64,000 nt of DNA. Source: Balanoglossus misakiensis. Its lineage: Eukaryota; Animalia; Hemichordata. The position numbers were made by a program, and so were the translations under genes. The first letter of the stretch is position 1; every line of letters begins with the position of its first letter. This document shows, piece by piece, positions 1 to 64,000 of this stretch. The stretch lies in contig CM082584.2 of assembly GCA_040954595.2 (NCBI GenBank), forward strand, positions 8,203,919 through 8,267,918. Direction: 5' to 3'. The notes below the pieces were generated by a model that was not told where the DNA came from, made no database searches, and saw nothing but the letters and a program-made list of their open reading frames with translations.

Positions 1-49
1 ACCATGGCGGTGGACGGGTTATAAATATTGCTCAGCGACTGACACTCAC

Positions 50-21336: not shown

Positions 21337-21618
21337 CAATAACGCCGTCTCCTCAGGTATGTACCTGACATTTCAGAAAAAAAGCCGTCGTCTGCTCAGT
21401 TTAATGTTTGCTCGCATGAGTACCAGTAATTCCGCTGCTCATCAGAAGTTAAAGTACAACAAAGGTTTAATTCAATGACGCTGTCTCCTCAGGTATGTAC
21501 CTGACATTTCAGAAAAAAAGCTGTCGTCTTTTGTAGTTTAATGTGATTTTTTTTCGCTGGAGTACGAGTAATTCCGCTGCTCAGAAGTTAGAGTACAACA
21601 AAGGTTTCATTCAATGAC
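21337..21618. repeat. About 136-140 bp diverged tandem duplication containing a splice donor
   Basis: gtctcctcaggtatgtacctgacatttcagaaaaaaag, agtaattccgctgctca and agtacaacaaaggttt each occur twice. CAG|GTATGT is at 21356 and 21492. Confidence 0.88.
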
Positions 21619-28900: not shown

Positions 28901-31900
28901 TCATTCTGTTAAAGCTTTCCTTACAAGGGAGAATTGAAGACCAAATTTTGTCCGAACCATGATAGTGAACAGGCTAAGACATAAGAAGATTTCTGTTTTC
29001 AATTATTGCAGTGGTCTATGTGACACAGCCACAGTGATCATGCGTAGACCAAATATGGTCCTAGCATGTCACTTTTTACACACATTTTGATGTCATGTTG
29101 TCTTTTACCTCTGTGGGAATAGAGAACGTCAATGCAGAGTTATATAGAACAGGTAAAATTGTTGGCTGGCAGACGAGCTAGAGGAGTATGATTTGAAAGC
29201 AAGTTCGGGACATGGTTTTTGGAGAAAAAAATTCATGATCGGTTTTGTATCATTTATTCTTAGCACCAAGTGAGCCTCGCAGTGTTACTGCTGCAGTCAA
29301 AGACAAGAACAGTATAACGGTGAGCTGGGATCCTCCGTTGTATCCGCGAGGAATCATCCAGGAATACAAGATATACTGGAGAAGGACAGGAGAAGAAGAA
29401 TTGTGAGTGTGTATGCAGGGCTCGTTTTGTTCCTGGAAAACCATTCTTGGAATTTGGATTGTTCCAGGAAGTTTGTAATAGTCCCGGAAACTCTCGGAAA
29501 ATTGATTGACTGCCTGTGGTCCATTGACAAAAATCACAGTTACTTTGAAAGTATGTGTAACAAGTATAGAACATCTAGACAATCACATCTTTGCTTTATT
29601 TCCCTCCAAGAAATTTTGACACGGTGCCCCTGTCGTATCCGAGCCAAGAGTTGAAGTACGATGTGACAGGTTTGGAAGAGTACGTTCAGTACGAATTCCA
29701 CGTTCAGGCATTCACAACTATCGGTGGCGGTGGACTCTCAGAAGTTGCTTATCAGTACACTTTGGAAGGTGGTGAGTGCATTGGCCATTGGTCTCGTGTC
29801 ATTTAAGAAGAAAGAAATTGCATGGAACACGTGTAGTCCTGATGACAAATGCTGATGCCCATAATGAAACTGTACTTTTGGCATACATGTAGTTTGAAAT
29901 CATGTGACATTTTCTCTCTGATTTTCTTGTACAGTACCATCTGGTCCGCCGAGACACATCCAAGTGGAGCCAATTGACGATCCGACCAGACTTCAGCTAA
30001 CTTGGCAGCCACCGTGTTTGGATGAGAGGAAAGGCATTATCCGGGGTTACATTCTTTACTACTGTCAACTGCAGAATCTCTCCAGCTCACTTTCTTGTCT
30101 GGGTAATGATGTCTTAAGTTATTTTTACATAGCATTTTGAAACCAGCAACGTCACAGATCTGTCACAAGGCCTGCAACCCTTGTCACTCAGAATGCCGTA
30201 CAGCATGGTAGTATTATGAAAACTGATGGCCTGGGCCATTTTTGTCTCCTGTATAAGTTAAAAGCCAATTTTAAATAATGGTTAAAAAAAAGGCTGTCCC
30301 AGTCTTCTAAAGAACATACATGTACATGGCCATCCAATGAAAATATACATCATTGGCTAGACCTCAACTTGCGATGGTAACTATGGCCAAATTTGTATAG
30401 CTGACCATGTATGTGTGCCTTTAATGGGCTCTGGATGTCTTCACACAGATTCAACTACTAGGATGCGTAATGTATCTGCCGAGGTGTCACACGAAGTCAT
30501 GGTGGTAGAGCTAGAAGAACTGAAGCCATTCACCGAATATGCTGTGTGGTTGTCGGCCTACACCAGTATAGGAATATCCGGTCCCAACAGTACTGAGATG
30601 TGGAACAGGACATCTGAAGGAAGTGAGTGACTTTGGGATGGTTTGTTGGGCACTATTGGTTGTCATTAAAGGGACAATAACTGTAATTTTTGGGGTGGTT
30701 TTCTTAATTCTGTGTGTCAAGCACAACTTCTTGTTCTACTCCAAAAAGCATTTTTCTTGACAATAGCATATCAGATTATTTGCTGTAGTGTTCAAAATCC
30801 ACTTCTTGCAGTACATGCCCTAATCTAAGTTCACCTTTGACCCGTCTAGCTCCGAGCGCACCCCGGGGAGTGAAGGTCACCAACAGAACAGCCACTGAGA
30901 TCACCCTGGAATGGCAGCCGCCGTCAGAACCGAACGGCATCGTTGAAAATTACGTAGTGAGGTACAACAGTGAATCCATCGTGGCCAACCAGACCAGGGT
31001 CACGTTAATGCAGTTGCTTGGCTACACAACTTACGTCGTCACAGTTCAAGCGTGCACCGGGGCTGTTAGCATTCCCTGTGGAGATGCGTCTGATGAAGTG
31101 CGCCCACAAACGCTGATTGGAGGTAAGGTTTTTGGAAAATTACTAAAAATTTGTAATGTCTGTTTCTCAGCAGATCACTTCCACACTCTTCAGTGTTGTG
31201 CCTGGCTTAAATTTTCTTTATATTTGATGCAATAATACAATGTACATTCTGTTACTCTGCTAAAATGTTAGTTTCACTCATTAATTATCAAAACCGGGCC
31301 TCTTTCTTGGCCGCAGTACCCGGCAAGCCGAGCCCACCAGTGGTGTCCCTGAAGTCGCCGGGAAGCGCCGTGCTGACCGTTGCAGCGCTGTCGACGCCCG
31401 GCGGGCCAGCGGAGCACGTCAAGTACTGGGTCTTCTACAAGAAACCCGGCGACGCCGAGTACATGGAACACACCAGTGTGGCAGGCACCAGGCAGATCAG
31501 CAGCTCCGCCGGCGCGTACACGTACGCAGTTGAAGTGCACATCGATTGCGACGATGTGAAGACTGATGCAGATTACGTGTTCGCTGTGGCGGCCGTCAAC
31601 AGCCGAGGTGATGATTTGCTGGTCGGCCAAATGAGCGATCCCTCTGGCTCTGTTAAGCTGTGCTACCACAAGCCAGGTGAGTTGCTACAGAAAGTTAAAG
31701 GCACAGTAGATGTAACCTTTGATATTATCATTATTTTTGTTCTTTTTTTGTCGTACCACGATGTAATCCGTAGAAACTTTCTACAATTATAGACTTAATT
31801 TATTTATTTTCTATATTTTCCCTTGTTTTAACCCCCAGATATTGCCGTGATAGTGGCTTTAATCATAGTTGGAACCATTTTAGCTATAGCAATCATTTTG

Positions 31901-33788
31901 TGTGGGACATTTAGTTGGAGAAAGTACAAGAAGTCAGAATTTGCTCTACCGGTGCCTGCTGCTAAACTGCCACCTCTGGTGAGAAACAGATTCCACTTGT
32001 TCAGACTCCTCCTGTGTGTGCATATATTTGGGTGTGGCACTGGTTTATTATTTAGCTTGTACAAACCCGCGATTCACAACCTGGTCAGTGGTAATATTAA
32101 GACTTTTATACATATCGCTCAGTAAGTAAAGCCATGAAAGAATTTTTTTTATTTTTGACTAACAGGAGACTTACAATGAGCGAGACCCAGACAGGAAATA
32201 CACAGACGACACCCGCGAAGTGTATGACGTTCTTCAGAATCACCGAGTAGATGCCACACAGCTTAGCAACGGTTATGGGCCTCAGTCCAGGTACCAGCGA
32301 CAGAGTAGTGGAGGATGTAGTGATACCTCGCAGCGATCAGACTCCAGACTCATTCGAGACACCGACCGAGACGCACCGATCGACGAGGACGAAGACGAAG
32401 TGTTTCCGTTACAGTTTCAAGACTACCACAAGTCGAGGAAGCACCCGTTGAGGATAAACATCCCGAAGCATTACGTGAACTCTAACCACCAGGACGCAGG
32501 TTTGCTGGCCATCCACAGTCCCGATTCGGGTTTCATGGCCGGGTCGCCCGGGTATACTGTGGTGCACGACCAGCTGCCCCTCGTTGGGTTTAGCTCCACC
32601 GGCAGTAGTCAGGATGACAGCGTGTCCGAACACTTGCAGATGTCGGACTTCAGCAACGGCCGTAACGCCCCTCCCCACGCGCAACAGGGCAACCGTTTGA
32701 CGAGCATCGATTCGGGATTCGGATTCAACTGTCTGAGCCCCACCGATTCGTCGGCACCGATATCGATCTCCGGATTTCTGCCGTCCGAGACTACCAACGT
32801 CAATTACTCCCAGCTCAGCCCGGACGGCAAACTGGCGCCGGTCAGTTTGGACGAGTCCGGTGGCTCTCACGTTGCCGTGGATATAGACTCGGGACACTGC
32901 CTGGAGAGCGTCGACTACCAGCAGCTGAGCCCGGAGGGGAAACTGGCCCCGGTCACCATGCTCTGTCCGGAGGACGACACGCGGTCGGCAGACCAGATAG
33001 GAGGCGGCTTGGAGTACAGCAGGATAGCTGCTGATGGCACCTTGTCCCCAGTCAGAAAGTCGGAGCCGAATGTGCACTTCAAAGGCGACATGATTGTGCC
33101 GCCGGCGGACGTCACAGTCATGAGCGTCCACGGGGCAACTTCTGGACAGGATGGGGACATGTGCTACGTCTCAGAAGAGAACATGAAGAACCCAACGTCT
33201 AGCCCTGCAAAAGATAGAGTACCAGGTGGTGAGATTTCACTGGACAGCAGCAAAGATACCTCAGGCTCTGCAAGACATTCAGGAGAGCACGGAGGAAAGA
33301 TAAAATTAGATGCACCACCTGCATCGGAATACGTCCCAATTGAGGATCCAATGCCTACAAAAGACAGGCCGTTCATGCGCGACATTAACCAGATGGACAA
33401 CCCTTCCCATGGCAACAGGGTGCATATACACGCCCTCTTGGACAATCCAAACTATGTGCCAAGCACCGGTTACGCCCCTGGCACTGACAATAATCACAGG
33501 ACTCCCGTAAATTCGGAAAAACCTAGCAGTAGTGGCCCGGTGTATGTGAACATTGATTCTGCACCATCTGACACAAACACTGACACACAGGACAGTGGTG
33601 ACAGACCACACTATGTGAATGACAGTGTCACAAAAGGCAGTCCAGCTGATGCTGCTGGTGATGTGAAATCAAAACCTCGGACAGATTCAACTCCACATGA
33701 GTACATCATTCAGGACAGTGTTGCCAATCCTAACCCAACTAATAAACCTGTCGCAGATGGGCAGTATGTTCAACATGCAGATGTGTGA
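25932..33788 (+). CDS. Gene B: complete gp130/Domeless-like class I cytokine receptor (signal-Ig-CHR-5xFN3-TM-long Tyr-rich tail)
   Basis: Exons: 25932-25995 (signal), 26323-26586 (Ig), 26729-26867 and 27046-27230 (CHR D1, FSCHSFNAFDILCTWD), 27381-27547 and 27712-27868 (D2, WGDWS at 27823-27837). FN3 exons are 28190-28278, 28455-28578, 28772-28870, 29264-29402, 29611-29771, 29935-30102, 30449-30622, 30850-31122 and 31317-31676. Then TM plus Box1-like LPVP at 31839-31978 and the cytoplasmic exon 32166-33788. All junctions are phase compatible. Confidence 0.92.
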
Positions 33789-36237: not shown

Positions 36238-36335
36238 TTTCAGATCACATGCACACACATCGTACGGCTGATGTCATATACTCAATGGCGAGAAGGGGAC
36301 CGAGCGGCTGACACGGCCACCATGGTGAAGTCGTC

Positions 36336-39300
36336 ATGGCACCAGAGCGTCGTTTGTCGAAGTTGGTCGTCACTTTGACGGTGTTGACCTGTGCGAGCCT
36401 TCGCTCCGTCCAAGGTAAGAAGGTCGACCCTGCGGGGACGCAGCTGCTGGTCTCAAATTCGAACGCAAATCTTTCAACAAGTTGTTCAGTATCCGTAACG
36501 TGATATAGGCCTCGACTCGTTTAATACGCTTATCAGTTTACCGTGCACCGTGTATTGTAGATCGAACTTTGCAAAATATGTGGACTTTGGTAAAGTTGAA
36601 TTGATAATCAAACAGGATCTCTGCCAACGCATCTATGCATGCTCCAATGTGGTAATCCGCTACTTGGCCTCATGATCATTACACGCAGGGATGCAGGTGT
36701 CCATTTCAGGCTTCGGTGCGGATTTATCCTGAAGTGAACTTGCGATAATACAAGACGTCTTGAAAGCAGTGTGGTGTCATTTTTTCAAAATTCCGCTAGT
36801 TTTTGTGACTTTGAGAGACTCTTTTGTATATATTTGATCCTCATTTCTGTCATAATAATGCACTATTTAGTCGGATTTACTCCATTTTCGGTTCATCATC
36901 GTCCCACTTCTAAGAAGCTAATGCACGTCACCATAACGGCCTGTACCAGGAACTCGCATCTCACAAATACGGGGAAGTGCTTTACACTTTATCTAGGTCA
37001 TCATTCCTCGCTTTACTGCACAACACGCGTTGTTAATATTATCAAACTAAAAAAATGTCGTGTTGTACGTGTACGATGTTTTTTTTTTGCGAAGAATTTG
37101 AATGGATGCTCAAGGAAACTAGGCCTGACAGTGCGAACCTGACACGCCACGCGTTGGCGTAAAAACGAAAGTAGTCCCGGTAAAGCGAAAATTCATGTGC
37201 GTCAGCGTGATATGGTGACGCATCACATCGATTGAAAGCGACCAAGCCGTTAAATTTTCACATTATTTAATAATTTGGGGTTATTTTTTTGTTTTTATGG
37301 GTTATTTATGTTTCTGCACACTTAAACATGCGCGATGACAGGTTGTTAATATTCAACTGTCCCTTTACATGGGGAAACAGGAGAATACACATCTGCAATA
37401 TAATTTTCAGTACTGCCCGAAAATTAAGTGTTTGACGTTTTCATATGTCCTTGTGCACACAATTTCAGTGGGTAGAACGACATGAATGCTCTGGAATTTC
37501 ATGCACAAACCATTTTACAGAGTGATTTTCTATTGAATGGATATTCATTTGCCCAAGAGACACTTGTCTTAATTGTGAAAGGGAAAGCGGATCATGCATG
37601 CCAATTAAAGACAGGGAAAGATGATTCTATTACGGCCAAGGACAACTTCCCACTTTTTGTGCGTAAATCTGTGAAAGGAAAAATAAATAGTGATAAATAC
37701 TGTCGCAGCAAATGATCCTTAACTTCTGCTTGTAGTGAACTGTGATGAATTATAGGTCATTATTCTTTTATGTTTTCTGTTCATTTGACACTGGAGCTGT
37801 TATTAACGATGTTGCTGTGGCTGAATTATAAGAATTATACATCCTCATAATGAACTCTTTTGTTTTATGTGATGATATATTCACGGTAAAATTACGTGAT
37901 ATAATTTACATATATGTGAGAGGCTGTTGTCAATTAAAACGTGTGTAAGATTTTCTGTGGTGGTGGACATGAAATGTTCAAATCCTATTCAAATTCAACC
38001 ACTGTTACCATAGAAAATTCAAATCTAAATCTAGCAATCGCAGATTGTAAGCTCGGACTCTGTGTGTGTGAAAATTTCAAGGTGTCAGTTGCAGAATTTC
38101 TGCCCCTGCACCAATAACCCACAATTCATCGCATTTCATTATTGTGCACCTTAATTTACTTCTTTCGTTCTGTGTTGTCAAGGTGTTCTATTCAATTCGT
38201 GGTCTTTCAGTTTGATGGGTTCCTGGAAGACTGACTTCAGCGTCTATTGAATTCCGGCCAGTAGTGCCCTGTGGGTTTTTCCCACTGCGCTCATTCATTT
38301 CTTTGTGTGAAAGTTGATGTATTTGTTGTTTGTTAGAGCAGGACAATGTGACCAGGCACTTTTGTGAAAGTGACCCCAAATAAAAAATCCCAAGGACAAC
38401 TTCTGTTTAGGATAATGTTTCGTGAAGATTGGCACTGCTGGGCAAATAGAGAGAGCTTCTCTTTTCAGATTCCGAAACAAAGTGACGTTATGGAAAAATG
38501 TGACCCCCTTGCAATAGTGGAAGTGCTTAAATTCGTGGTATAAGTCGGTTTATATTGCAACTCGTAACAATGCGTTACGCTTGATATCACCACACTTTTT
38601 GTCATCAGTTTGCAAAACTCACTTGGCCTGCATCCTCATGAATTTTACAAACGGATGACGTACTAAGTGTTGTCATATCAAGCATAACGCATCGTTACTC
38701 CTGCAATAACCTATACTTAATACATTGTTTGACTTCTATAAGTTATAACTTGTATTGTATAACTTTGGTTATCTTTTCAATATTTGTATTCATTTGTGAT
38801 AAAAACAGCTTCCTGAGTTCTCTATGGCCTGTACATGTGTAATAAACACCCAATGCTTATGTTCACAAATGGCAACAGTGCCAAACACAGTGGCTATTAG
38901 TGATAAGATAAACAGTGGGCATTTATTTAATCGAGCCCCGGGGCATTGAACGCAAAACTTCAAATAGAACACTGACAGACTCATCTGGGTCAGTAACAAA
39001 GATGTTTTTGTACCCTGCACAATCTTTATATTTGCATGATACGTACATGTGTATGTCTGTCACAAATATACATGTTGTCACAAGTCAGTGGTAATGGATG
39101 AGTTCCCTTTAGACAACACTTCTCTTAAATTAGCTGTTGACAGGATAGCCTGTTTGCATGGGTACGAGGCTAGAGATGTAGACTGAATGGTATAATAATT
39201 CTGTCACCAATTGCATTTTTTAAAGTTTTTATGTTATTCTGCTCACTGAAACACTTAATTCACAAGCAGGTTAGACTTAGAAGTAGAACAGAGCTGCTGT

Positions 39301-42300: not shown

Positions 42301-45300
42301 GTGGCACACATTTCAAAGTTTAACCCTTTCACAACCATGGTTCAGTCCAAACCCATTGTTTTCTATGGTAAGGTTGGACCTCTAAAGAGGGAACTGGGGG
42401 TGAAAGGGTTAAAACAGACAGAATGTATGACTATTATAAATACATCATTCTGATAGGAATATGTTTGAACTGAAAGTGTCATAAATAAAACTTAACAGTT
42501 TGACAATGATCAGATACTGGTATATTGCTCAGCAGTGTATCATGCATGTGCATGGATATGAAACCATGATCATAGCACCTTGATTGAGTGTGTTTGACAC
42601 ATTAATATCTTATACATTACGTCTGCTATGAATAAAGTTTTTTTATAGGTCAGGAGAGGTTGTATATTACATCAAGTCTGTTTCACTCCTAATTTATTGA
42701 CTCAAACTCTGTATACGGTACTGTTACACATATGTAACATGGTATAAATGTTTTCCTTGGATGGAAAAATTGCAGAACTTCAAACAAGAGCCATGTTGGT
42801 TTTCTGTGGAGTTTTTTATCAGCAGGTTTTCTCACACAGGAAGAGATATGGCTGTTGATTGGCATCTTGAGTTTCAGTACGTGCACATCCATGGCAGAGG
42901 TGAATGTTCGGTGCCAACAACTGGTAGTTTAATGTGATCAAAGTACAAGTGTGCAGCCATTCACAGTGTAATATTGAGTGGAGTGGTAAAGGTTTGTTTT
43001 TATCTCTGAGGACATAATACCAAGGCAACTAAACATGTAGGGCAATCCAGCGCAGGTGTTGAAAACCACAGCCATCAAATCACCCTGGCCCATAAAAAAG
43101 TGTCTGAAATAGTCTGGTGAAGTGACTTGGAGACAAATAGTGTGTTTGTGAGGACTCAAGCACTTAACTGTCACTTAATATCAGAAAACCTAAGTTTGAA
43201 AGTAAAAAGTTTAACAAGAGCCCCACTCTACTATACCACAGGTGAAAAGGTTAATTATCCTAGCCAAGTCTGGTTATCAGAATCCATAATCTTCTTCATC
43301 CTGTATACTGTAAGTTGCTGCGTGACCTGAGTACAGTACAATGGTCAACTAGCTTTATCGCTTCTGTCTGTTGATACAGTGTGCCAACGGGATATAAATG
43401 TTTGGTGTATTTGAAGGGTAGGGCTTTGGGGCTTAAGCTTTGTAGTGGAGGAAAGCCACCCCAATAAAAAGAGAAAACAAATTGTGATTTAGGAGTGGTG
43501 GGGCGGCATTTTTGTTGCTTGATTCACTCCAGGAAGTTACTTAATTTGAAGTTAATGCAGAATTGCATGCATGCTTCCCAGTTTGTTGGACTCGCACCAC
43601 ATCTGACCAACTCCCATAGAAGCTCCCGTTTAACCTCCCATTGTGGCCTGACCAATCAGATTGCACGTTACTTTGATCTACACTGAAGGATATTATACCT
43701 ATCGTTCTCTATGGCACCTTCTGATTGGTTTACTGGCCCTGTACAGCCAGAGATCTCACAATTAGCAGAAAATCATCTGTTAAAAAAATTGGAATTGGTG
43801 ATCGAAAACTGTGATTATATTATTGATATTTGTTTCTCCCTGGTCAATCTTTAAAGGGACATTAGCTGTAAATTTGTTTTTGTTTTTCCGGTATCTCTTT
43901 TTTGTGTATCAAGTCCAATTTCTTGCTCTACCCCTGAGTAGCTTGTAATATGTGTATAGGTACACAAAACAAAAGATGTAGCAGAAAGTTACAGCTAATG
44001 GAGCTTTAAAGTACATGTACCTAAACCAGGACAGAACATTTGACTTCTGATTGACCGTTGTCATGATGTAATCACACTTAATTACCGGTAATCGGGAACC
44101 TGACCTGGTGAATGTCTGAACATGTTTCGAACACTTCAGAGGCCATCATTTCCAATAAAACGGTGGAATGTTAAACCTTAAACAATTTTCATGTGATCCT
44201 CTTGCAAACTGGCAACAGCGATTTGTGGCCATTTGTTACAGTATTACTGTCACACGGTCAAGCACTGGTGTGATGTGATGTACAGAATCTCTGTAAGGAT
44301 AGACTTGTACATACATGTACAGTGTGGCCTGGTTAAACTCCTGCACACAGTGCATGCAGGTCTATAATCCCATGATGATAATAATGGGACGACGTGAGTG
44401 CTTGAAATTGCGCAATATATATCCACCTATCATTCCTGACATTAATGTACCCCGGATGATATCTTATATAAATTTTAGATAACTTATCAATAGAGGAAGC
44501 CTGTACCTTTCTCCAATGGACAGGTACATCAAGAAAAAGGGAAGAGATCAAGGATTACTTTACATGTATGTCATAGTTATCCATGTGTGATCTCAATGTT
44601 TTAATGTATATATAATTACCGGTACCTCATGTGTAATGATTTTGATATCACTCCACATACCTAATGGTATAGTAATGATAAAAACCGTAAAACTGCCATG
44701 ATATGCAAAGTACTGTGTGGGTGGCACAGCGTGGGGGAGGGGGTGGCGTGGGTGGGAAGGTGATGTCATAAATGATAAGGACATTTTGTATAGTGTGGAA
44801 TGGCGTGGTGGTGACACTGGCAGAAAGAAATATGGACATACAGTGATACTTATAGTTGTAATATATTGCTATATTATTGTGGCCTCATACCAGAGAGATT
44901 AGACAACACACTTGGCATCGATAGCCATGCTGTTTCTTTATTGCTTTACTGCACATGCTCACCTGTTCAGCCTCATGCATTATACACAACAACTTTTTAC
45001 ATAGCAGTTAATACCAATACATATCACTAGTCTGTTAAGGACATTTCAGGAACACAAACTTGCATCCTTAGGAGAGAGCCTTTTTTTCTACCATCTAGAT
45101 ACCAATGGCAGCACATACTTGTCCAGATTTTCACTGATTCCAGAACATAAAAGCATTCCACAGCCATGAAAATCACTGTGACAAAATTTAATTGCCTGCA
45201 ATAATTTCATTCTAACTTGGTTAGTACAAGGACATGATGTAATAAATGTTCAAGGTTTTAAATAGGATTTTATTGGTTCTCTCTTCTGCACAGCTGATTC

Positions 45301-48300
45301 TAACCCTCCAACCAATGTGCGAAGTGACTGTCCAAACCTGAACTGCACTGTATACTGGGACCCGCCAGAAGGCACGACTGAAAACGACACTTTGTACTAC
45401 ACCACAGAACATCAAGAGTAAGTAATTCCTAATTAGTACATATACGTCATGTTTTGATTGACATTTAGAATGTTGATAGGGAACTTTTGCCAACAGGATC
45501 ATGAACTTCTTTGTGGATAAAAGAGGAAATTGTTTATACACACACCGCTGGTGGCTAATTCAATAATTGAATGGTTTATACATTAATATGAAATTAATGC
45601 ATGCCTAATATAATGCAAACACTGATTTCAAAAAGATCATAGCATATTTGCATTCGGTTTGTATGCAATATAGTAGTAACATGCATGACAATGATCATTG
45701 ACATGTACAAGTAACTTTATTGCATTGCTCTGTAACCCATATTTGATAAATCAGAAGCAGGGATTACCATACTTGGACATTAAACAATAAATTTAACACA
45801 TTCTGTGAATGTTACTTTAAGTTGACCAGTAGCATTTAATTCCTAATCAGTAATTTAATGTTCAAACATAAAATTCCTAATCAGTAATTTTAACATGTTT
45901 GATGTTAGTCCCAATACTGGCAATTTACATGTAGATCAATAACAATTAACAAACAAAAAAAGTGAGAAAGATATGTCTTTGATAGACAGTGCATGTACTT
46001 GCGTACACGGCATAGGCATATTGTAGCATGGAAATTTGCATGGTGTCATTTTCTTACAGCTGTATCGAATTATATGATAATGGATGGATAACAAAGTGTA
46101 CTAACAGCACAGAAAGAGAATGCAACCTTGGTAGTGATTTGACTTTCCCAGAAAAACCATGGTGTGTGTTGGTAGGGACACTAACAGAAGATGGAACTGC
46201 ACAGAATCTGTTGAATCCATCACTTGTGATAGATTCCTATCATACGGGTAAGCTGGAAGTTATACTCCTTAATGCTAGCTATATTTTTCTGGCTTTCAGA
46301 ATGGCAGAGTTGGTGTATGATCCTAATAACTGGATGCACAAACAAGAATGTACAAACACAACTCTCACGTTGTGCAATTTTGGGGCAGACTTCGATCCAA
46401 TTATTTCTGATTGGCGCACAAAAGTCTCGTCACTCAAAGAGGGTGATCCAGAATACAGTACACCTAAGACAGTTGGTGTTATACCTTATTATGATGGTAA
46501 GCTCAGAAGTGGCAATTATTAAATATTGCATCTAGTTGAAAAAAAGTGAAAATTAACTTAAGTACTACTGTACCAAATTTGTTGGAACTATCGACAGATA
46601 GTAAATCATTTTTGTGACAATGTTCTGCTCATTTGCATATATGACTTTTGCTTTTAGTTTTCATTTCCAACATTGCTGCAGCTAATTTGATGAAACTTGC
46701 TTTAGTTATTTATCTGACAGTCATCTGACATCTACAAGTTCCATTTGAATTAATATCTTATTTGCATATTAAATGAATTTGTGCAAGCAGCTGTACAACA
46801 CCAGACTTCCTATACCGAACCTGAAAAATTAGCAGTTATATTTGCGCTAGCAATTCATGTTGTGTACCAAAATATTTATTGTGTTATGCTATTGCTAGTT
46901 AACCATTAATATAGTGTTGGAACTATTTTTTTTTTAATGCAGCAACACTTGGTGAAGCATATATTGTAAATGTAACTACCACCAGCCGTTCAATTTACCT
47001 GAGGTGGGACTCTCCTTACACTCCATATTATGACTACAATACTGACAGACAGAAGCAAATGGAAGAATATTATAGTATCCAGTATAATTTGACATACTGG
47101 GATGTTTCTGATCCTACAGAATGTGTAAGTACTTCCAGGGCTTGCTTGTTTTTTGTTTTTTTGACAAAAAACATCAATGATGATATTCTCACCAAGCTAC
47201 CAAGATCCCAGTTGACTCACTAAAATGTAATGCTGCTTTGTGCAACCTGCATAATTTCATTCAAAATTAAAAAAAAAAATTATAATGTGGGCAGTGATTT
47301 GTATTCATGAACTTGTGATAAAGAAATTAGAATGTATGGGGATTAATTCATAGACAATAATTTTCAATGAAAGTTTTTGAAATTTGACACAGATGACAGT
47401 CGAGACAAGTACTGTAGAATTTACAACTCTTAGTGGAGACAAGATAATTCCATGGAGTACTTACACCATTGTTGTCCAGGGAAGACTGCCTACTATTGCA
47501 GGCTATGGAGAACAGGTTGACGTGACTGTAACCACAGATGAAGAAGGTATTGTATACAATTTGCTTTTACAAATTGTGTATACATGTACCAGTGAAGTGT
47601 GTAATTTGTGACTTATTTTGATTGAAACCACAACCTTACCCTGTCTTGCCGTGACGTCTCCTTGCAGTTAATGTGACGTCATGTGTAAACAACAGTTGCA
47701 TCACCATTTCATGTTTTAGAGTGAGGAGTTTATCAAATTCTGTCAATGTGATTTTTTTTATCCAGCTCCTGGAAAAGGTCTCACACTGACGGAAGATGGG
47801 CAGTCACATGACTGTGACATTTCACCTGATGTCAGAGATGTGTATATCTCCTGGCAGGTGAGTAGAGCAACTCTCAGGCCAGCATCCATAAAATTCATGA
47901 CTGCCAAGAGTTAGATGGATCAGGATTTTCTCAAACCTGTGCATCATTGATAAATTACCACTTACATGTAATGTTTATGCACTATCCCAATAGGCCATTG
48001 AACAGGAGTACTGTTATGGAGAATTAACCAAATATCAAGTACGGTACAGATGCCAAGAAAATGCGACCACAATTGAAACAAATGTAAACACCACTTCCGT
48101 GATCCTGTCAGATATATCAAGATGGTGTGCCTACGATGTAGATGTTTCCGTGTGTAATTCGGCAGGGTGTACCGGAAGTGAAAATCCACTTACAATTGAT
48201 AGCATCAAAATTGGTATATATGTTTACATGTTTTGTTCGTAAACTTTACAAATGTATTCCCCTGTAACTGATATTACTTTGATTTGAGTTATAAGTTAAC

Positions 48301-51116
48301 TTTTGTATAACAATCGTTTACTTTACAGCCAGAGACCCACCAGTAAATGTCACAGCGTACGACACCTCATACACCTCATTCAATGTGACCTGGCTTCCAC
48401 CTGACAACGATGAGTGCGTCCACAGTTACAATGTTCGGTACACAAGTAACATCCACGAAGGGGAAACTGTCTCCTACGGTCTTCATGCCCACATAAGAGA
48501 TGTACCATCTGATACAGAATACACGGTCACTGTCTCTGCCAACATCTATGATTACTATGATAGCACAGACGAGAGTGAACCACGGTCAACAACTGTGAGA
48601 CTTGTTGGTAGGTTAAGACTCTGTCCTTCAAAGTCAGCCACTTATGACCTTGAATGACGGAATAATATGAAGTTATTACAATAGTACCTCAAAGTATACG
48701 GTACTAATGTCCGAGTGCATTCTTTGTGGAATTTTTGTAAAATCATTATTATACATCTTTCATCTCTGTTAGTTTTTTTTAAATCCAAATATCTTGTGTA
48801 CCACAATCAACTTATTTCCAATCATTTCCACAGATTGGACAACGCAAGTAGGTCTGATAGTGATCATGGTAGTCCTTGGTGTAATCGTGATGGGGCTGGT
48901 CATTTTGTATGCTTGCTATAGGAAAAAAGAGTTTGTCTATAAGAACTGCTTTGGAGCCGTTAAGAAAGACTCTTTCGACTCGTACATGGTGAGAGAACTT
49001 TTTGACAGTTTGCAACAAATTAAGATGTTTATATGTTTATGATACTCATTTTATAACCCATTGTCATTTCCAGAGGGGGGGGGAACATATTTGATGAAAA
49101 AATAATGTCATTCAAGTTTTGCATGACTGACAAGGCAGTATCTGTAGTACATGTATTTTAAATGGATAGTGTGACGTCCATGTCTGACCTCATGAGTTAA
49201 TATTAACGGACTAAAGGGACCACATTTTGTTTCCAAATTTTGAGGTGATCATTGAAATTGTAAATAAAGTATGTATAAATCACACTAAAATAAACTCCAA
49301 CCATATTCTATAAATTAACACTAACAGTACATGTCCTCATAGTGTACTGTGTATTGTTAGTTTGCAGGTTTCTCAATGGGTTTGTATATGACATTTTATG
49401 TTGCAGGTCGGAGTCTTAGATGACAGACCTAGTGTTCCAACTCATGAAGCCTTCGAATATGATCGACTGTACGCGCCCACAAATGGGATTACTCTTGGTG
49501 TAAATCTTGACACCTCCTCTCCAACTGAGACTGGGATTGCTTCACAAGTTTCTCCACAATCTTCTGATACCGGAATAAACAGTTCTCCAGGGATGGTACT
49601 AAACCTCAGCTTGTCAGATATCCTCTTGCCTTGTAATAGCGATGATAGTTCAGGCGTGGGTGGAAATGTCGAGCCAATGGAAGAGTATCTGCGGGTGGCC
49701 GCAAGCGACAGTCAAGAACCGAGCAAGGACGGCTCACACGGAGTCGTCAGCTATGTCAGAGTCGGGGCTGGGAATTCAAGTTCAAGTGAGGGTTCCCAGA
49801 GTGGCTACCACTTGCAGAAGCCGGTTACTCCTGAAGGCCAACGGGTTGTGCAGTCTGTGGAGGACGGCGAAACTCAAGGAGTTCATCTGGTGGTGGAGAC
49901 TGCAGGTGACTGGGTGAATGACAGCACGTTGCAGAGTGATGAAGAGGACATCGGTGCCAAACTTGCTAAGATTGGTATCGTACTGGATGTGGACAACGAC
50001 GGCAACGGGAATCCCAGTCTGGAAGAGAAAGCCGACGTGAATTCTTGCGGAATACAGGTGGATTTCAGCGACGGTCTTGAAGATGCAGGTGAGAGGAGCA
50101 CCCACACAGGGGGAGAAATTGCGGATGATTTCGGTCAGGGGAGAGATATTGAGTCACCAGCAAAGCTGGATGTTCAGTTTTTACTTGATGGCAGTTACTG
50201 CGGTGATATAGTGGAGTGCGACAACCAATTATTTGAATCGCATGAATTGCCAGAATTGAGCAGCGGAAGCAGCTCAGGTAGCAAGTCGGCATCGAGTTGT
50301 GGAACCAACATGTCTGGCTACACACCCTCATTAGAGCCAGTGGCAGCGCAGATCGAGGAACACGAACCAACCACCGCAGAGTTTCCAGAAGACAATCCAC
50401 AAGATGAGCCGGATGCAAACCTTGCCGACATCCTCGGTATTCCATTCGGAGGAGGAGATTTCGGAGGGTCCCAGAGTGAAGTCGATTTCAGCGACGGGGA
50501 GGGACAAGACGATGATGACACGCAAGCAGCTGTTGCCGCCAAATCTTCCAACTATGTTGCACCTCCGTCTGTCGCCGAGGAGTCGCGACCCGTCAACAGA
50601 CAAGACTGCAGTTCAGGGGACCAAGCACATGGAGACTACGAAGCTTCAGTTCCACTTCCTGCAAGTGGCGATTATAGTCTGGCACCGGCCACAAGCGACA
50701 GACAGGATCGTTCACCAACTAACTACGTCAGTTCGGGCTACGTTCCTCCGTCAAATTCTCGTGATTTGAAAAGCGAGAAACAAGGAAACTTCCTGAGGCA
50801 GGAGAGCAGTACGAGTGATTATGCAACAGACGACGACATTTGTAGAAGTAGACATGACACTGCTGCAACCAAGTCCGACGAGTCTCCTGCAGAGGAGTGT
50901 GCATCAGATGCCTCGAGCGACAGCGCTGTGGGTAGTTCCTCCGACTCCAATCTAGACATCGCAAACCATCCTGATGGTTTTACAGAAGCCGAAAATTCTC
51001 ATTACTACAAGTCTAACCTGAACAATAACAACATTGACTTGGCAAACACAACAAGGACACCCACAAGTGATTTTTGTGAAACATTTTGCAGCAATGACCA
51101 GACAAACGTCCCCTGA
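36336..51116 (+). CDS. Gene C: class II-like (IL-10R/interferon receptor/tissue factor-type) cytokine receptor with two extra FN3 domains, TM and long acidic Tyr-containing tail
   Basis: Exons: 36336-36414 (signal MAPERRLSKLVVTLTVLTCASLRSVQ), 45294-45417 (PPTNVRSDCPNLNCTVYWDPP..YYT), then either 46060-46247 or 46300-46496 (W..C-x7-C-N-L/F), 46943-47124 (TLG..P.TP..MEEYYSIQYNLTYW) and 47393-47546. FN3 exons are 47766-47857 plus 47994-48213, and 48329-48607. Then TM 48834-48988 and tail 49407-51116. There is no WSxWS, and phases across D1-D2 run 1-2-1-0-1. The receptor call is solid; class II assignment rests on motif recognition. Confidence 0.82.
42320..42412. mobile_element. piggyBac-like MITE, best preserved copy
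   Basis: ttaaccctttcac ... gtgaaagggttaa perfect inverted ends including TTAA. Confidence 0.75.
43851..44009. mobile_element. Non-autonomous DNA transposon, Kolobok-like
   Basis: ttaaagggacattagctgtaa ... ttacagctaatggagctttaa imperfect TIR with TTAA flanks. A similar end remnant lies at about 5519-5543. Confidence 0.6.
46060..46247 (+). CDS. Gene C alternative exon 3a (second half of D1; candidate mutually exclusive exon)
   Basis: Acceptor ttcttacag, donor G|gtaagc, phase 2 to 1. Encodes CIELYDNGWITKCTNSTERECNLGSDLTFPEKPWCVLVGTLTEDG..VIDSYHT. Confidence 0.7.
46300..46496 (+). CDS. Gene C alternative exon 3b (second half of D1; candidate mutually exclusive exon)
   Basis: Acceptor ggctttcag, donor G|gtaagc, phase 2 to 1. 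Encodes MAELVYDPNNWMHKQECTNTTLTLCNFGADFDPIISDWRTKVSSLKEG..VIPYYD. Confidence 0.75.
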
Positions 51117-52615: not shown

Positions 52616-53434
52616 TTATCCAAAAATGGTCTTTGTCAAATCACGAAGCCTGCATGTGTCCTCCCGCTTTGGGCTTTTACAATAATACACCAATGATACA
52701 AAGAGTGACAATGCTGCTCCCGACGAGAGATAAAACCGCAAAGACTTGAACCACGAAGGGTAGCCGGTCAGTTGGATGTCGATGACGGCCGCTCCGGACA
52801 ACCCAGCTATCAGGCACGTCAAACCAACTCCCTGATCAAGAAGCAGGCCCAGCCACGCCACCAGGGACGGCGTCACACTGTAGGTCAAATTCAACCAGTC
52901 GGGCTTTGCACTCGCGCCGTTCAGAGTGAGCCCCCAGCGGACTCCGCCGAGAAACGACAGGATGGTAGCGCCGTACGCCATCTGAGCAAACAGCAGGTCG
53001 GCGTCGCAAGAGTTCGTGGCCGCGCAGTACAGCGCGGCCGACGCAAACGGGATCAGACCCGCGAATCCAAGGACTAAAGCCGGCGCCGGTGCCTGGGACA
53101 GGTATCTGTACTTGTATGCAGTTGCGATGGTGACATTTCTGTCGTCTGCCACTGCCGTGTACCCGGCCAAGTTTCTGTGAAAGTTTAACTGTCTCCTCCC
53201 AACATGCTGTGTCTGCATAACTCCACAGGGACCAACTCCTTGATACTTCAAACGCTGGAGAAGTTTGGTGGCGATGTCGCCCTCTATTGCACGATTGCGT
53301 CCAGGTTCTGCTCTCTGAATGCCCACCATATACATGTACCTCCTTGTGAAGTTGGAGCATGAACAGAATTGCAGATACAGTTGATTTCTCTGTCTACTGA
53401 ACAGATAGCACCCAATTCTACCTGAGATCTGCAT
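52616..53434 (-). CDS. TMEM69: Transmembrane protein 69-like (DUF3429)
   Basis: ORF carries PAPALVLGFAGLIPF, AQMAYGATILSFLGGVRWG, SVTPSLVAW and YPSWFKSLRFYLS, all characteristic of TMEM69. The ATG sits directly after an acceptor (tctttcag|ATG at 53434). An upstream 5' UTR exon ends at the donor at 53816. Confidence 0.92.
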   Translation of the reverse strand: MQISGRIGCYLFSRQRNQLYLQFCSCSNFTRRYMYMVGIQRAEPGRNRAIEGDIATKLLQRLKYQGVGPCGVMQTQHVGRRQLNFHRNLAGYTAVADDRNVTIATAYKYRYLSQAPAPALVLGFAGLIPFASAALYCAATNSCDADLLFAQMAYGATILSFLGGVRWGLTLNGASAKPDWLNLTYSVTPSLVAWLGLLLDQGVGLTCLIAGLSGAAVIDIQLTGYPSWFKSLRFYLSSGAALSLFVSLVYYCKSPKREDTCRLRDLTKTIFG

Positions 53435-53815
53435 CTGAAAGACAAAAAATGGCAAATATTCCAAATTTGGACTACATAGTTTTACATAATAATACCTGTA
53501 TTAAACAATTGCCCACAACCATCATATGTGTAATGTTTGGGTCGTTTAGAGGCTGTTGATATTGTTGTGTAGGACGATCACTAGCTCTGCGTGGCAGGGA
53601 TGCATGTCTCACGGCGATGGAGGCATACAGCCCTGCCACACACAGCTTGACGCGACGATCACGGACTCACACACTGACACAGTGACCGTGAATGTACACA
53701 ATGATACATGTAAGATGTACACATGAAATGTACACACTTCGAAGGACATCATGGGGAGTCCAACTGAAATCAACATGATTATCGATGAGTGACTCCAGTA
53801 AATCTGTCGTCTTAC

Positions 53816-54370: not shown

Positions 54371-56443
54371 CGAATTTATTTTATAAACTTTTATTTCGTG
54401 AAATTACAACTTGTTGGTTGCAGTGTAACTCTGATGACCCGTGACACTTACTCACGAGTAGTGTGTGAGATTTTGTTATTTTCCTCGTCATTTTTGACAC
54501 CTTTGCATATCTGGCTGCATTGCTCGGCGTGTTTTAGTAACGTATGTTTCCTTTATTTCAACAGGAGCGCCAAATCCGGACGTGACAATGTACTAAACGA
54601 ACGCAATAACCCGTTCGACAGGAAGCTGTGGCTTGCTGGCGTCAGAGATATCGAAACAAACAACATTTGCTACACGCTGAATCATACGTTGTATGTGATT
54701 GCTCGGTTCCAAAACTACCAACAGTGGCGAGAGCTGGTTCTGGGAGATTCCACAGGAAGCGTTTAACCAAAGCTTGATTTGTGACGAGGGCAACTGAACC
54801 TCTAATCGTTACAACCCCCGAAGAAGCCGCACACACAGCCGATGTTTACATGAGGAGATAGACACCACTGAATATTGTGGCCATGTCCCCTGTTCAAACC
54901 TAGGGGTCAAAGTGTACTCTCGGGAAAACGCTGTAATCACATTGTGCAATCTGGAGAACATCGTCGATAGTTGTGAACCTGGAAGTGTAAAAATGTGAGA
55001 CATTAGAGTTATAAGGGAAAGAAGTAGCTATAGGAGCTTTCATGTGATTGTAAACAAATCGCAAAACGTGTGTCTTGTTTCCCCCCTTCAGAAGTGCCAT
55101 TTTCTTGATCGAGTGTTTCCCTTTAAAAATTTGGAGGTCTAAGTTTCTAACTGGTAGAGTAGCTGTTTGGTTGAGATAATTCCGACACTATCTTTAGAAG
55201 GTTTACATAACTGTATACTGTGTACAAATTCATTCAGCATTCTTTTAGATTATATATTCAATTCAAGGTGTGTGATATATTTTTGTAAATAGCTAAATCT
55301 TTAAATATCTCAGATTCTTTATAAGTCCTCCTTGATCTTTCCACTAAGTACATACAGTAGCTTGTATACCAAGTTAGGTGAGCTATTTTGTCGTCCATAA
55401 TTCTCAAGCAGTGTCCTTAAACATTTTCTCAGTTATTCTAATAAGCAATACACGACCCCAAGTCTGTTTTGTTGTTGAAAAGTGTAACCAACAGAACGGT
55501 TCAAAAGAGGTCTCAATGCTCATGCTCCAAAAGCCCATGCCATTACTGCCAGTTAAAATAAACAAGTTTTAAGGGAAACCTATGGAGGACGAAGACCCAG
55601 AACTCTAAGAAGAATTACTTCCACGGGAAATTTTTTAGGACTTATCACTAACTTGTGCTTGAACTGATAAGAAGATTCCCAAGTGACTTGAACAGCTACG
55701 CATAAGAAGTACTTGCTTCTTTTGGAATCCTGCTTGTTGTACTATGATGTGCTAGCAGGAAGTGGACTTCTCGATTGGATTGATCTGATATCAAAATAAG
55801 GATTTAGAGTTAGAATTCAATGGTAGACGGCGTTTGTGGGGAGAACCACTGGTTTACCCCCTCAAGTTCTTCCCAATCTGTCATCTTATAGTGTTCATGA
55901 AAAAGGTAAGTGTTTCGTTTCATATTTGTGAAATGTGTGTGTACGTGTGTGTTTGGTCTTGTCACAATATGTACATGTAGGGATTGGCCATATGGGTGGT
56001 TATTTTTACTGGGAGAACTTGTAATGGCTAGAATGTTACTGAAAATATATGAACTCAGGCAGTGTTCAAATTACATGTAATATATCTCTAGTGCAGCTGA
56101 TGGCTCCCATCCTGATGTTCTTTAGTGATAAAAGTTTGGCTGCCCTTTGTTCATACACATTGTATTATTATACAGTTACAGGTGTACATGTATGATGCGT
56201 ACAGATAAACATATGTCACCCCATTCGGTATATGTAGTTCATGGGTCCGATCACCCACTTAAAACATGGGGGGGGGGGGGGGGGTTGTACTAAAGCACCC
56301 ATCGATAACAAGGGGGTTGTAGTGTACATTACTAAAGCTGGAAAATGACAGGATTTAACTATCTCGCTATAAAGGTTTCTTATGTGGTATCATTGTGTTA
56401 TGGACTTAATTTCCAGGAGTGGTATGCTATGCCTATAGATGTG

Positions 56444-59400
56444 ATGGCTAACCCTCCTCAGCATGATTTTGCACCTGCCTGGCTGAATTTTCCTAGTGAA
56501 CAGGTGAGTTGAATTACACACTTAGAAAGGGTGGGCATTTCTGTTGTCATACACGGTGTTGTTTGAACCATTAGGGTGTTCAAATTCCAGGATTCACATA
56601 ATTGTGCGTACAGACACAAGCCACCCGAAATCTGATAACCTGCCCATTCTCTTGCACAGAAGCCATTCAAATCTCACCAATATGAGCACCACCAGCGCCA
56701 CGACAGGAGTTCACGAAGTCACGACCGCGACGACGGTGGATACCTTGCCAACCAGGAACGTCTTTACTCCTCTGAATCTCACCTTGCCCATTCTGGACAT
56801 CCGCCCTTACAAGCTCACCCTCAAGCAGGCTATGGATACAGAGGCAGAGATGGTAAGTCAATTGAAATTAGTATTATTTACATGGACTCGTGGTCATCAG
56901 AGAACTTGGTACCTTTAAAGCAAAAACACAAGTACAGGCAAACCTGCCTATAGTGGCCAGTCAAGGGACTTTCGTAAACTGGCCTTTATAGACAGGTGGC
57001 CTTTATTGACAGGTAAATTAATGTAAATGTAGTACATGTTAATTGCACAGGGACTGTAACAAAATGGCCACTATATAGAGGTGGCCACTAATACAGGTTT
57101 GACTGTAGTGTATAGCATGCAGTACATTCGTTTGATTTACAGTACATGTACATGTACGTGCAGTTCGTTATGACCAATGACAGAAATTTTTCCTGCCCTC
57201 TTTAGAATAATTCTATGTCTCTATTTTGCTATGACATGTCCCCATCTCCATTACTGTGATGTGGTGTGTTTTTTTTTCCAATAGACAAACGCCATCAGCC
57301 TCATCCTGGCTACACCAGACACCATTCTCTAGATGACGATCGCTACCAGCACAACTTCCAGCAGGGCGGGGGCGATGCCATCTACCACCAGGGCGGCCAC
57401 CTGTGGCGTCCGTCCCGCGACGGCATCTACCAACATCCCAACGCCCGCTTCGGCAACGGCACCTTCCACGGCGGGGGTGCCGGTGGAAACGGCTACCACG
57501 GCAACCGAGGCGGCGGCGGCGGGAGACAGAGGTACAACTCTGGGTCCCGCGAGTACCACGAGCGCGGTCGTCAAGACAGCAAGGAGGAGAGCTGGGACGG
57601 GGAGATGGGCAATGATGCGGAGAGTGAAACCAACGAGACTTCAAACAACAATAATAGTGTTGACACGGGAGAGAAGTTTGAACAAGAATTTGTGAGTATA
57701 CTTGAAGATGTTATGTAGAGCATGTATGGCATGCACAGTTAACAAATGTATCTACAATGGGAAATATCTGTATTAGATGATTGCTGAATGATCTATGACT
57801 GTTATATATTTCACCATGATCTTTTCCACTGTTCTCGTCACCATGAGACTTCTGTAGTTCTGTGTTAATAAATCATTGTCCTTGTTTGTGTGCTTTTAGC
57901 CTTCTTTGCGAGGAGATGTTGGGAGTGGGGGCAAAGAAACTCAAAGTAACAAACCAGCTGGCGTTTGGGGTAAGTGACTTGGCCTTGGTTATACATGTAT
58001 GTACATGTTCTAACAGTGAACGTCTTATTTGAAACGGGGAATTCCCCTACATGTATCTCCCAGTCATGAGTTTGTTCCTATCTCTCAGTCTGACACATGG
58101 ATCAACCTAAATGATTTTGTAGTTTGTGTTGAGTACAAAAACGATGAAAAACTGCTTTCTCTCATTGAAGTACAACATGCATTACTGTATACTGTGAAAT
58201 GTCTCCCTCTGTAAATTGTAAAGGCATTACAAAATGGTGACTTTCATCATGGCCAAAAGTGTGTATACTTTCTATACTGTGCCTCTTATTGAGTTTCAAC
58301 ATCACTGTACACATTCTGTCAAAAATGACAATGCTATGTTTCTTGGCTCCTGCAGACAAACCGCCTAACTCGAAGATACACAGCATGGGTGGGCGGCGAA
58401 TGCAGCTGATACAGAAACCACTACGCAACGAGAGCACTGACAGCAGTTCCAACGGTGGTAGTACGGGAGAGGCGGGTCAGAAACTGAACCCCCACGCGGG
58501 CATCGTCAACCAAGCCAACAAAACAGCCACATCTAATACTGCCAGTAATAGTATCTACAAGTCGTTGGTGCCTTCGAAGGGTCATACCAAGGTAAAATAA
58601 AAAATGTCCCCACTTACCAGTATGCACTAGTAACATAAACACGGTTGTGCATAATTTTACTGCTATATACAATAGCACTAAAGAAAACCTGCTTTTTATG
58701 ATTCTTATGATAATGAGTGGAATGGCTTTGCAAGTTCATTCAGCATTTACTTTGTAATTTTAAGTGATAAAGCAAGTAGGAGAATTTATTGATTCAAATT
58801 TCATTTTAAGTTCTTGTGTGTGAGCATTCCACATACTGACATTAATTATTACATTACAATTTCCAAGATACTGTCACTTTCTTAGCTTATAGTTGCAATT
58901 GTTTGTCCCGACAGAGTGCTTCCCGTAAACCACCACCAGTAAAAGAATTGAGTTCAAAGCCGAGTGTAGCGCCAGCCTCTCAGACGAAGCCGACTACACC
59001 GACCACGCCGATTCCTACAACTTCACAATCATTCACTAAGGAGGTGGGTTAGACTCTACCAGTTACATGAAGTAACAGTTTGTCTGTTTGTGTGTGTTTT
59101 ATGCATGTGAGAGTTGTGTTATGACCTGGGTTCATTTGAATGTGAATGTATTTATGTAGGTGTGTATCTATGCTGACTGTATTCAGTACATACTATTCGT
59201 TCACATTATTCTTTTTACACACTTGAACTGACGATGTCTAATCGATTTTTAGGCCTACCCATAACCTACCGTAATACAGTAATGTTACATGTATCTTGTT
59301 GGTGTATATGTGTTTGGTATAACGCAGGCAACCGTGACAGTCATACAGACGATTACAGGTGTTTATTCAACAAGTGGTGCTATAGAAAATGATCCCCAAA

Positions 59401-60853
59401 CCTGCACTTTCTTCCAGGTCCCACAGCGTCCCACCTCCACCCCACCTATTGAGATCCTCAACCCCCGCCTTGTGACGGCGCAAACCAAGAAGCTGGACAA
59501 GAAGAGTGACTTCCTCAAAGAATTGAGGAAGGGCAGCGGCAGCCACAAGGACGACAATAGTAAAGAGGAGGAGAATGGCGATGGGTGTAGTAGTGAGGAC
59601 GAAGTGAATCCGGAGGAGAACGGAAATACAAATAATGAGGTGTGTATAAAAATGTAAATGCAGTCAACTGAAGGGTCATATGGTAGATATTGCTTTGGTA
59701 CATTGTATCTTCACTTTGCTGGTATTGCACATAGTGTACGTATTTCTCCATAGTGTGTGTAATGGTTATGTGACGTGTTTCATGAATATCAGAAAAGGTC
59801 AAATGATTCATTACACACGGAGAGCACATCATTCACTAATGTGTTTAGTACTATCTACAATCCCTGTATTTTGTTTCCATTCACATTCCCAGTTGCCGTC
59901 TGAGGACGACACAAAACTGATGAATGAAGACGACGTGTTCTGTGAGAATGTGTGTCCGCGAGAGTTTGAGGGAAGGAAGAGACAGACTCTAGACATCAAT
60001 CATCTAGACAGTTTGACGATTAGCATGAATCCCGGATCTTCGCCGATGAAGTCGGAGCTATCGAGTTCTTTGGAAGCGGAGAGGAGGTTGGTACTAATAA
60101 TAAGATTGATTTCCCCCAATCACTGAAAACTGTTCCGGCTGTGTCAAAAAAGGTCCATAGAAATCTGAGTCAGTGACGAGTTTAGGTGGGGACTAAGTTA
60201 TGAATATGTGTCACCACTTCAGTCATTGGTGACCATATTTCTGATGTTGATTGTGTCAAAAGACGATCTTGTTCGCAACCTGATTTCATCCCTGTGTTGA
60301 CCAGCGACATGAACCAGACAACATTGGATTATATCTTGCAGGTTGTTGCGGGAAATGGGCTGGCAGGAGGACATTGATGAGAAGCCTTTAACGGAAGACG
60401 AGCTGAGAGAATTTCAGGCTATTACTGCCAAGCTGGATAATAAACCTGTAAGTAGTCATTTACGACCCAGTATGGCTACAGTGCATGTGGCCATTTTGTT
60501 GTCATTCTGCATGTCCTGGTAACCATTTACACGGACGTACACCTCCTGAATTGATTCCATTCAAACTTTGTACTGTGACACTGACATATGGTTGCTTCCG
60601 GATATGATTTAAAATGGCTGCCGGGAAACAATTTTGCTGGAGTCCTTACTTGGATATGACTGAATTGAGTTACAAAATGGTCTTAATGCATTTGTGTGTG
60701 TAATTATTTTCATTTCAGAGCAAACTGAGAAACGGATTCAATCACAATCTTATTACAAAATGGAGTCCAGTCCACAACATCAACAAAATTGATCTGAACG
60801 AATGTGAATCAGACTCATCTTCAGACTCCTCAGACGATGAGAATGGTCCTTGA
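56444..60853 (+). CDS. GPBP1: Vasculin / GC-rich promoter binding protein 1-like (co-orthologue of GPBP1 and GPBP1L1)
   Basis: Exons: 56444-56503 (QHDFAPAWLNFP; an in-frame ATG also lies at 56429), 56660-56852, 57285-57691, 57900-57969 (FEQEF|PSL), 58356-58591 (SIYKSLVP), 58915-59043, 59418-59639 (DKKSDFLKELR), 59893-60086 (LSSSLEAERR), 60342-60447 (LLREMGWQE..PLTEDELREFQ) and 60719-60853 (acidic SSDSSDDE end). AATAAA at 61369. Confidence 0.93.
56933..57107. mobile_element. Tc1/mariner-pogo type MITE (TA TSD) in a GPBP1 intron
   Basis: ta-caggcaaacctg ... caggtttgactg-ta inverted ends with internal repeats of tggcc..ta..gacagg. Confidence 0.65.
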
Positions 60854-63984: not shown

Positions 63985-64000
63985 GTAAATACAACGGAGG

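Follow-up and report, generated by a model that had tools for sequence, protein, structure and literature searches.

Class II cytokine receptors, among them IL-22R1, IL-20R1, IL-10R1/R2, IFNLR1, IFNGR1 and tissue factor as well as the CRFB proteins of fish, have in common with the acorn-worm gene described here a D1-D2 fold (PF01108), a signal peptide, a single transmembrane helix and the 1-2-1-0-1 array of intron phases that marks the class (bioRxiv 10.64898/2026.05.30.728932; PMC8863823). In zebrafish, two interferon (IFN) specificities are provided by two genes, CRFB1 and CRFB2, and gene duplication is likewise described for fish IFNAR2 (PMC5332411), while exon skipping is described for IFNGR1 (PMC11853465). 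Interferon ligands and receptors have been traced to lancelets (bioRxiv 10.64898/2026.08.17.745176; 10.64898/2026.05.30.728932) and, in the account given by the second of these sources, IFN homologues occur in lancelets and jawless fish and not in other invertebrates. The amphioxus protein BjCRFB1 is, like the product of the present gene, a class II receptor of an invertebrate deuterostome with four FN3 domains (bioRxiv 10.64898/2026.08.17.745176); the main text of that preprint contains no occurrence of 'splic-', 'isoform', 'exon' or 'hemichord-'. Outside this family, the alternative exons IIIb/IIIc of FGFR1-3 and 5A/5B of C. elegans egl-15 are under Fox-family UGCAUG control (PMC2777236). 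Our literature search, which took in a minority of subscription journals, found no paper on mutually exclusive exons (MXEs) in the ectodomains of class II receptors, and none on class II receptors of hemichordates.

Here we analyse a window of 64,000 nucleotides from Balanoglossus misakiensis (contig CM082584.2). One of its genes encodes a class II cytokine receptor that has two FN3 domains beyond D1-D2, and we judge it probable that exactly one of two copies of a D1 exon, A or B, is spliced into the transcripts of this gene, giving two receptors that differ in their predicted contact loops. An exon switch of this kind in a class II receptor of the acorn-worm lineage is apparently real, conserved and undescribed; what is already known is a pair of Ptychodera flava isoforms held in RefSeq under a misleading name. 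The gene model has 11 exons between 36336 and 51116 on the + strand:

36336 to 36414, + strand: exon 1, with the ATG and a predicted signal peptide (hydrophobic N-terminus from the sequence; 8/26 identity to P. flava) and a phase-1 donor
45294 to 45417, + strand: exon 2, first half of D1, strands A-C, phase 1 to 2 (25/42 identity to P. flava X1/X2; strands from the P. flava X1 model)
45418 to 46059, + strand: intron upstream of exon A, with four TGCATG (Rbfox-type) motifs
46060 to 46247, + strand: exon A, alternative, 188 nt, second half of D1 of a putatively derived type, matching P. flava X2 (XP_070563356.1); conserved Cys pair at 46097 and 46121, two A-only Cys at 46061 and 46163
46248 to 46299, + strand: intron between A and B, 52 nt, with a single YTNAY branch-point match (A at 46272)
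46300 to 46496, + strand: exon B, alternative, 197 nt, second half of D1 of the family-typical type; Cys pair at 46349 and 46373
46943 to 47124, + strand: exon 4, first half of D2, phase 1 to 0 (33/61 identity to P. flava; Pfam PF09294 at E 0.0098, under the cut-off)
47393 to 47546, + strand: exon 5, second half of D2, phase 0 to 1 (26/51 identity to P. flava)
47766 to 48213 (47766-47857 and 47994-48213), + strand: exons 6 and 7, FN3 domain D3 (fn3 at E 1.5e-5 for exon 7; 20/31 and 37/73 identity to P. flava)
48329 to 48607, + strand: exon 8, FN3 domain D4 (Pfam fn3 at E 1.6e-8; 67-70% identity to three P. flava proteins)
48834 to 48988, + strand: exon 9, transmembrane helix and juxtamembrane segment, read from the sequence
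49407 to 51116, + strand: exon 10, a cytoplasmic tail of 569 aa that is rich in Ser/Asp and has tyrosines and a single YxxQ (YHLQ), followed by the stop

The receptor thus reads, in order, signal peptide, D1-D2, two extra FN3 domains, transmembrane helix and long tail. The intron after exon 1 spans 8.9 kb; the ATG at 36322 is not in frame. The tail encoded by exon 10 has no Pfam match and, by eye, no clear Box1. A DSA[VI]GSS motif (protein residues about 998-1005) is common to both species in the otherwise diverged tail and resembles a beta-TrCP degron.

The original prediction assigned the gene to the class II receptors and placed A and B in the second half of D1, and Pfam matches, intron phases and fold comparisons support both assignments. 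Across D1-D2 the phases run 1-2-1-0-1 (exon lengths 79, 124, 188/197, 182 and 154), the class II array. All five P. flava proteins scanned pass PF01108 (Tissue_fac), isoforms X1 and X2 with 37.2 and 28.6 bits against a cut-off of 27; the window fragment, which is only half a domain, scores 24.7 bits (E 2.2e-5) against the same cut-off. Exon B reaches E 0.012 with this family and exon A by itself has no Pfam match. Exon 4 scores 16.6 bits (E 0.0098; cut-off 21) against PF09294 (Interfer-bind), a family that is not reported at E 0.01 for any of the five P. flava proteins. Among sequences in the PDB the best match of exon B is a weak one to IL-20RA (E 0.2), the D1-D2 part of a profile matches IL-20RA, IL-22BP, IL-22R1, IFNGR1, IFNAR1 and IL-20RB, and at E 0.01 X1 finds three class II chains where X2 finds none. 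A class II D1 is recognised by a Trp and a Cys-x7-Cys pair with no WSXWS. The D1 of this gene carries the Trp and the Cys pair and is without WSXWS, unlike the neighbouring gp130-like genes with their WSEWS and WGDWS motifs. When the B-type D1-D2 of P. flava is modelled (pLDDT 70.7, the five models ranging over 37.6-70.7), its best fold match is IL-22R1 (Z 15.2, rmsd 3.7, 199 residues aligned), with IL-10R2, the IL-20R1 complex and IL-10R1 also among the top matches. The best 43 VIA matches listed for this model are all class II chains, with fibronectin close behind (Z 13.2), and Foldseek aligns it with class II chains at E 1.6e-12. In the ESM Atlas, D1-D2 of X2 falls among FN3/IFNAR1-type clusters at 0.91, and there was no usable match for exon B.

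Recomputation reproduced the anatomy of the duplication as originally described, namely the coordinates, homology and phases of A and B, their GTAAGC donors and the 52-nt gap between them. Both exons are preceded by AG and followed by GTAAGC, and both are entered in phase 2 and left in phase 1. They are identical in 22 of 66 alignment columns, with a local score of 66 that none of 5000 shuffles reached (shuffle maximum 53). A profile of five B-type segments, run against the 2169 six-frame segments of the window, matched solely the A/B open reading frame (next best E 0.21); there are therefore two exon copies in the 64 kb and no third was found. Either exon alone had been expected to join 45294-45417 to 46943-47124 in frame, and this holds through the whole gene: A with the nine other exons gives an open frame of 1060 aa and B one of 1063 aa, both ending at the stop at 51116. 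The frameshift expected on splicing A to B is also borne out, with a stop at codon 205 (46969), and skipping of both exons produces a stop at codon 72 (46955); both stops lie far upstream of the last junction. A and B are, then, adjacent homologous exons of similar length with the same phases and frame, as in the definition of an MXE cluster.

These features of the sequence make it very probable that A and B are used exclusively, one per transcript, as the original prediction held; the predicted isoform pair of P. flava and the conservation of both exon types speak for the same conclusion, the A type and the B type each occurring alone, in X2 and X1 respectively. Among 38 other introns, taken from the window's three receptor genes (24 + 14, the latter 14 with exon ends snapped by hand), none is shorter than 115 nt, more than twice the length of the intron between A and B. 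The one YTNAY match in this short intron predicts a branch point at 46272 (A), only 24 nt away from the donor. Steric interference, at a criterion of < 50 nt, applies to 57 of 629 human clusters (PMC5740500), and from the 52-nt length and the closeness of the branch point to the donor we predict steric exclusion at this locus. A would not be joinable to B, its donor being too near the branch point of the 52-nt intron. Frameshifting would raise a second barrier, in which nonsense-mediated decay destroys transcripts with double inclusion or double skipping. All four splice sites of A and B lie about within the range of constitutive scores (scored leave-one-out). The donors reach 5.9 and 6.4 bits against a median of 7.2 for the 23 constitutive sites, and the acceptors 12.9 bits for A, the strongest, and 6.4 for B (constitutive median 6.7, maximum 12.8). 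Docker/selector pairing was considered and rejected, the longest perfect complement between the regions being only 9 nt.

The closest relatives that we found are all from P. flava. A search with the D4 exon matched 3 of 107 candidates, all of this species and 67-70% identical, and a search of 1.84 billion representatives, with other hemichordates, echinoderms and amphioxus outside its reach, returned 2 matches, both of them further P. flava proteins and both B-type. Used as a homologue query, the A+B read-through frame matched none of 258 candidates, which were longer proteins. A profile search confined to proteins of 2063-5000 aa gave 1 Dscam among 2855 candidates and is uninformative on other species. 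In a metagenome scan 1 of 140 stretches passed; it proved to be a retroelement-like ORF caught through a chance 8-residue word and was rejected.

One P. flava cluster (P0003) consists of 2 members, the RefSeq isoforms X1 (XP_070563355.1) and X2 (XP_070563356.1), which carry the same A/B swap as the window gene. They are predicted models and were compared as proteins; RefSeq isoforms of this kind would normally rest on transcripts. Identical over a 64-aa prefix and a 1049-aa suffix, they differ only in the A/B segment (65 versus 63 aa), X1 being B-type (48% identical to B, 31/65) and X2 A-type (37% identical to A). Like matches like: local scores are 100 for A with X2 against 53 with X1, and 165 for B with X1 against 64 with X2 (none of 3000 shuffles reached any of these), and the BLASTP E values, like type versus other type, are 7e-10 versus 4e-4 for A and 5e-19 versus 3e-5 for B. 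The A-type segment is homologous to the B types at E 7e-9. In a tree, A and X2 stand apart from five B-type segments with 97/99 support, the X2 branch being long. Both A types have four Cys at matching places and all five B types two; the A-only Cys, at the first codon and after the strand-F Trp, are found in both A types and in 0/5 B types. BLAST aligns A to X2 with 35/62 residues, and there is little conservation over the last third of A. The shared ectodomain exons are 51-68% identical between the window gene and P. flava. On these comparisons X1/X2 is the best match and the probable orthologue of the window gene, yet the flank tree leaves orthology unsettled. Only B is seen in four more P. 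flava proteins, which come from three additional loci. From the sequences we infer that B is the ancestral, family type and A a derived, faster-changing copy (37% versus 48%).

The P. flava pair is named 'serine-rich adhesin for platelets-like' in RefSeq, which tells us that it has gone unrecognised as a cytokine receptor. Its tail differs from that of the window protein in having many YxxQ repeats rather than one: a 12-residue tandem repeat at residues 894-1026 of P0003/P0004 supplies about ten YxxQ-type motifs, presumably STAT3 docking sites. Class II receptor-like genes of P. flava (proteins P0001-P0007) occupy at least five annotated loci on a single contig of 45.7 Mb, under the names 'uncharacterized', 'DSCAM-like' or 'serine-rich adhesin'; P0006 is made up of only D1-D2, a transmembrane helix and a short tail, as in an accessory chain of vertebrates.

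Ligand contact in class II receptors is made by loops L2-L6, where D1 meets D2 (PMC7689341). By the B-type P. flava model, the swapped segment comprises strands C'-G and the D1-D2 linker. We take loops L2-L4 to fall within the A/B exon, with strand limits from the same model. As A and B are identical at only about one third of positions, the two surfaces differ, and the A and B receptors are likely, on this modelling, to differ in their predicted ligand-contact loops. In the usual FN3 strand register the A-only Cys lie near each other on neighbouring strands; from this register and the model strand limits we predict an extra disulfide in the A type. The original prediction had looked to models of both isoforms. 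The B-type P. flava D1-D2 folds, with the pLDDT of 70.7 given above, while the A-type D1 in AlphaFold has a pLDDT of about 30 over residues 1-105, from a shallow alignment in which 2 of 11 rows are A-type and one of these is partly misaligned; the B model, for comparison, has 76-89 over residues 1-70. Judging from the sequences, we lean towards the A and B forms differing in what, or how tightly, they bind. That they have two separate ligands, as the original prediction proposed, is a step further, and one we regard as less likely than not.

Several other accounts of the two exons must be weighed against this. One is that 46060-46496 is a single long exon which retains the 52 nt and encodes a D1 of one and a half domains. 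The frame does stay open through the 52 nt, giving 1143 aa as first reported, and a sterically blocked intron can, we infer, be retained. An open frame here is not beyond chance, however: the intron is stop-free in 47.5% of 100000 shuffles, which with the factor of 1/3 for length gives about 0.16. Both inner splice sites are normal and neither of the two members of the P. flava cluster is a read-through, so the third, intron-retaining form of the original prediction is not upheld, and the long exon is highly improbable. Hardly more credible is the idea that the receptor is made from B only, A being a duplicate that is decaying or seldom used. A does diverge faster, and only B occurs in the other P. 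flava paralogues, but in the window A has an open frame and good splice sites, and it is present as P. flava isoform X2. In neutral simulations, with assumed rates, a load of 0.25 substitutions per site plus indels left exon A intact in 70 of 4000 runs, under 2% per lineage; at 0.5 substitutions per site it survived in 9 of 4000, and at 0.25 without indels in 348 of 4000. The A/B-typed X1/X2 pair and this low neutral survival of A together indicate, on sequence grounds, that the duplication predates the species split and that both copies are under selection.

An account that keeps exclusive splicing deserves more attention, although we regard it as unlikely: the A form could be a non-binding or low-affinity receptor, serving as a decoy, as a dominant-negative or as a tuner of sensitivity to the same ligand. 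A departs from the family profile in the Pfam and PDB searches, lacks the P-Y-[YNF]-[DGE] end that is kept in 5/5 B types, and is less conserved than B (37% versus 48%), and the pLDDT of about 30 for the A-type D1, from its shallow alignment, points the same way. Against this, A retains the Trp and the Cys pair as well as the pattern of strand F, and a second Cys pair, gained by A and present in two species, suggests a folded surface. Decoy receptors are, moreover, more simply made by dropping the tail.

As to how the choice between A and B may be set, the intron upstream of A offers a lead. Its four TGCATG motifs lie at 45598, 45682, 45990 (-70) and 46037 (-23), and the -23 site reads TGCATGGTGT, which is unique in the window. 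Four copies were reached by 6 of 5000 dinucleotide shuffles; just 2 of 198 tiles hold at least four, one of them being this intron, and the other 24 introns contain 13 TGCATG in 13963 nt. The finding is post hoc (4 motif sets in 5 regions were inspected first) and three other hexamers are as enriched or more, so the Rbfox motifs are a lead only. The TGCATGGTGT site resembles the juxtaposed UGCAUG and GUGUG elements that are described as repressing egl-15 exon 5B in muscle (PMC2777236). The four upstream motifs suggest that the A/B choice may be under tissue control. Tentatively, A would be the default through its stronger acceptor, and Rbfox bound to the upstream UGCAUG would repress A and so shift splicing to B. 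The fullest version, in which one member of an acorn-worm class II family uses an FGFR-style, Rbfox-controlled switch to read two interferon/IL-10-like cytokines in different tissues, is possible but doubtful.

Just upstream of the class II gene lie two diverging gp130-like class I receptor genes (1-6400, - strand; 26323-33788, + strand) with Ig and LIFR_D4-like domains, WSEWS / WGDWS motifs and many FN3 domains, which brings receptors of class I and class II together in one cluster. No duplicated exons were seen in the + strand gp130-like gene (modelled without its first exon); the long region upstream of this gene has two copies of a direct repeat, each of about 60 nt, at 21348-21530. Beyond the class II gene come a DUF3429 (TMEM69-like) gene (52616-53500, - strand), a Vasculin (GPBP1-like) gene (56400-60850, + strand) and a short-chain dehydrogenase gene (62728-64000, + strand) that is cut by the window end. 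In human, TMEM69 presumably stands beside GPBP1L1 on chr1p and GPBP1 near IL6ST on chr5q; by this analogy, the TMEM69-like/GPBP1-like/receptor neighbourhood would be an old deuterostome synteny.

Class II receptors in a lineage of hemichordates would take the family back to the ancestor of the deuterostomes. If the switch between two cytokines is true, class II signalling with more than one ligand would stand at the base of the deuterostomes. Two otherwise identical ectodomains would also serve as a bait pair for the missing invertebrate ligands, and the half-domain swap as a natural experiment on the loops that set specificity.

Compared with known class II receptors, the acorn-worm gene is set apart by two extra generic membrane-proximal FN3 domains, a 570-aa tail and the duplicated, swappable D1 exon. 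The last of these has its counterpart in FGFR IIIb/IIIc and egl-15 5A/5B, where mutually exclusive ectodomain exons also occur and set ligand specificity. Those genes belong to an unrelated family, the Ig-domain tyrosine kinase receptors, and their ligands and tissue pattern are proven, whereas the A/B gene is known from sequence. The steric exclusion predicted from the 52-nt intron is a further difference from FGFR and egl-15. By analogy, the A/B switch is likely to work like that of FGFR IIIb/IIIc while being no relative of it.
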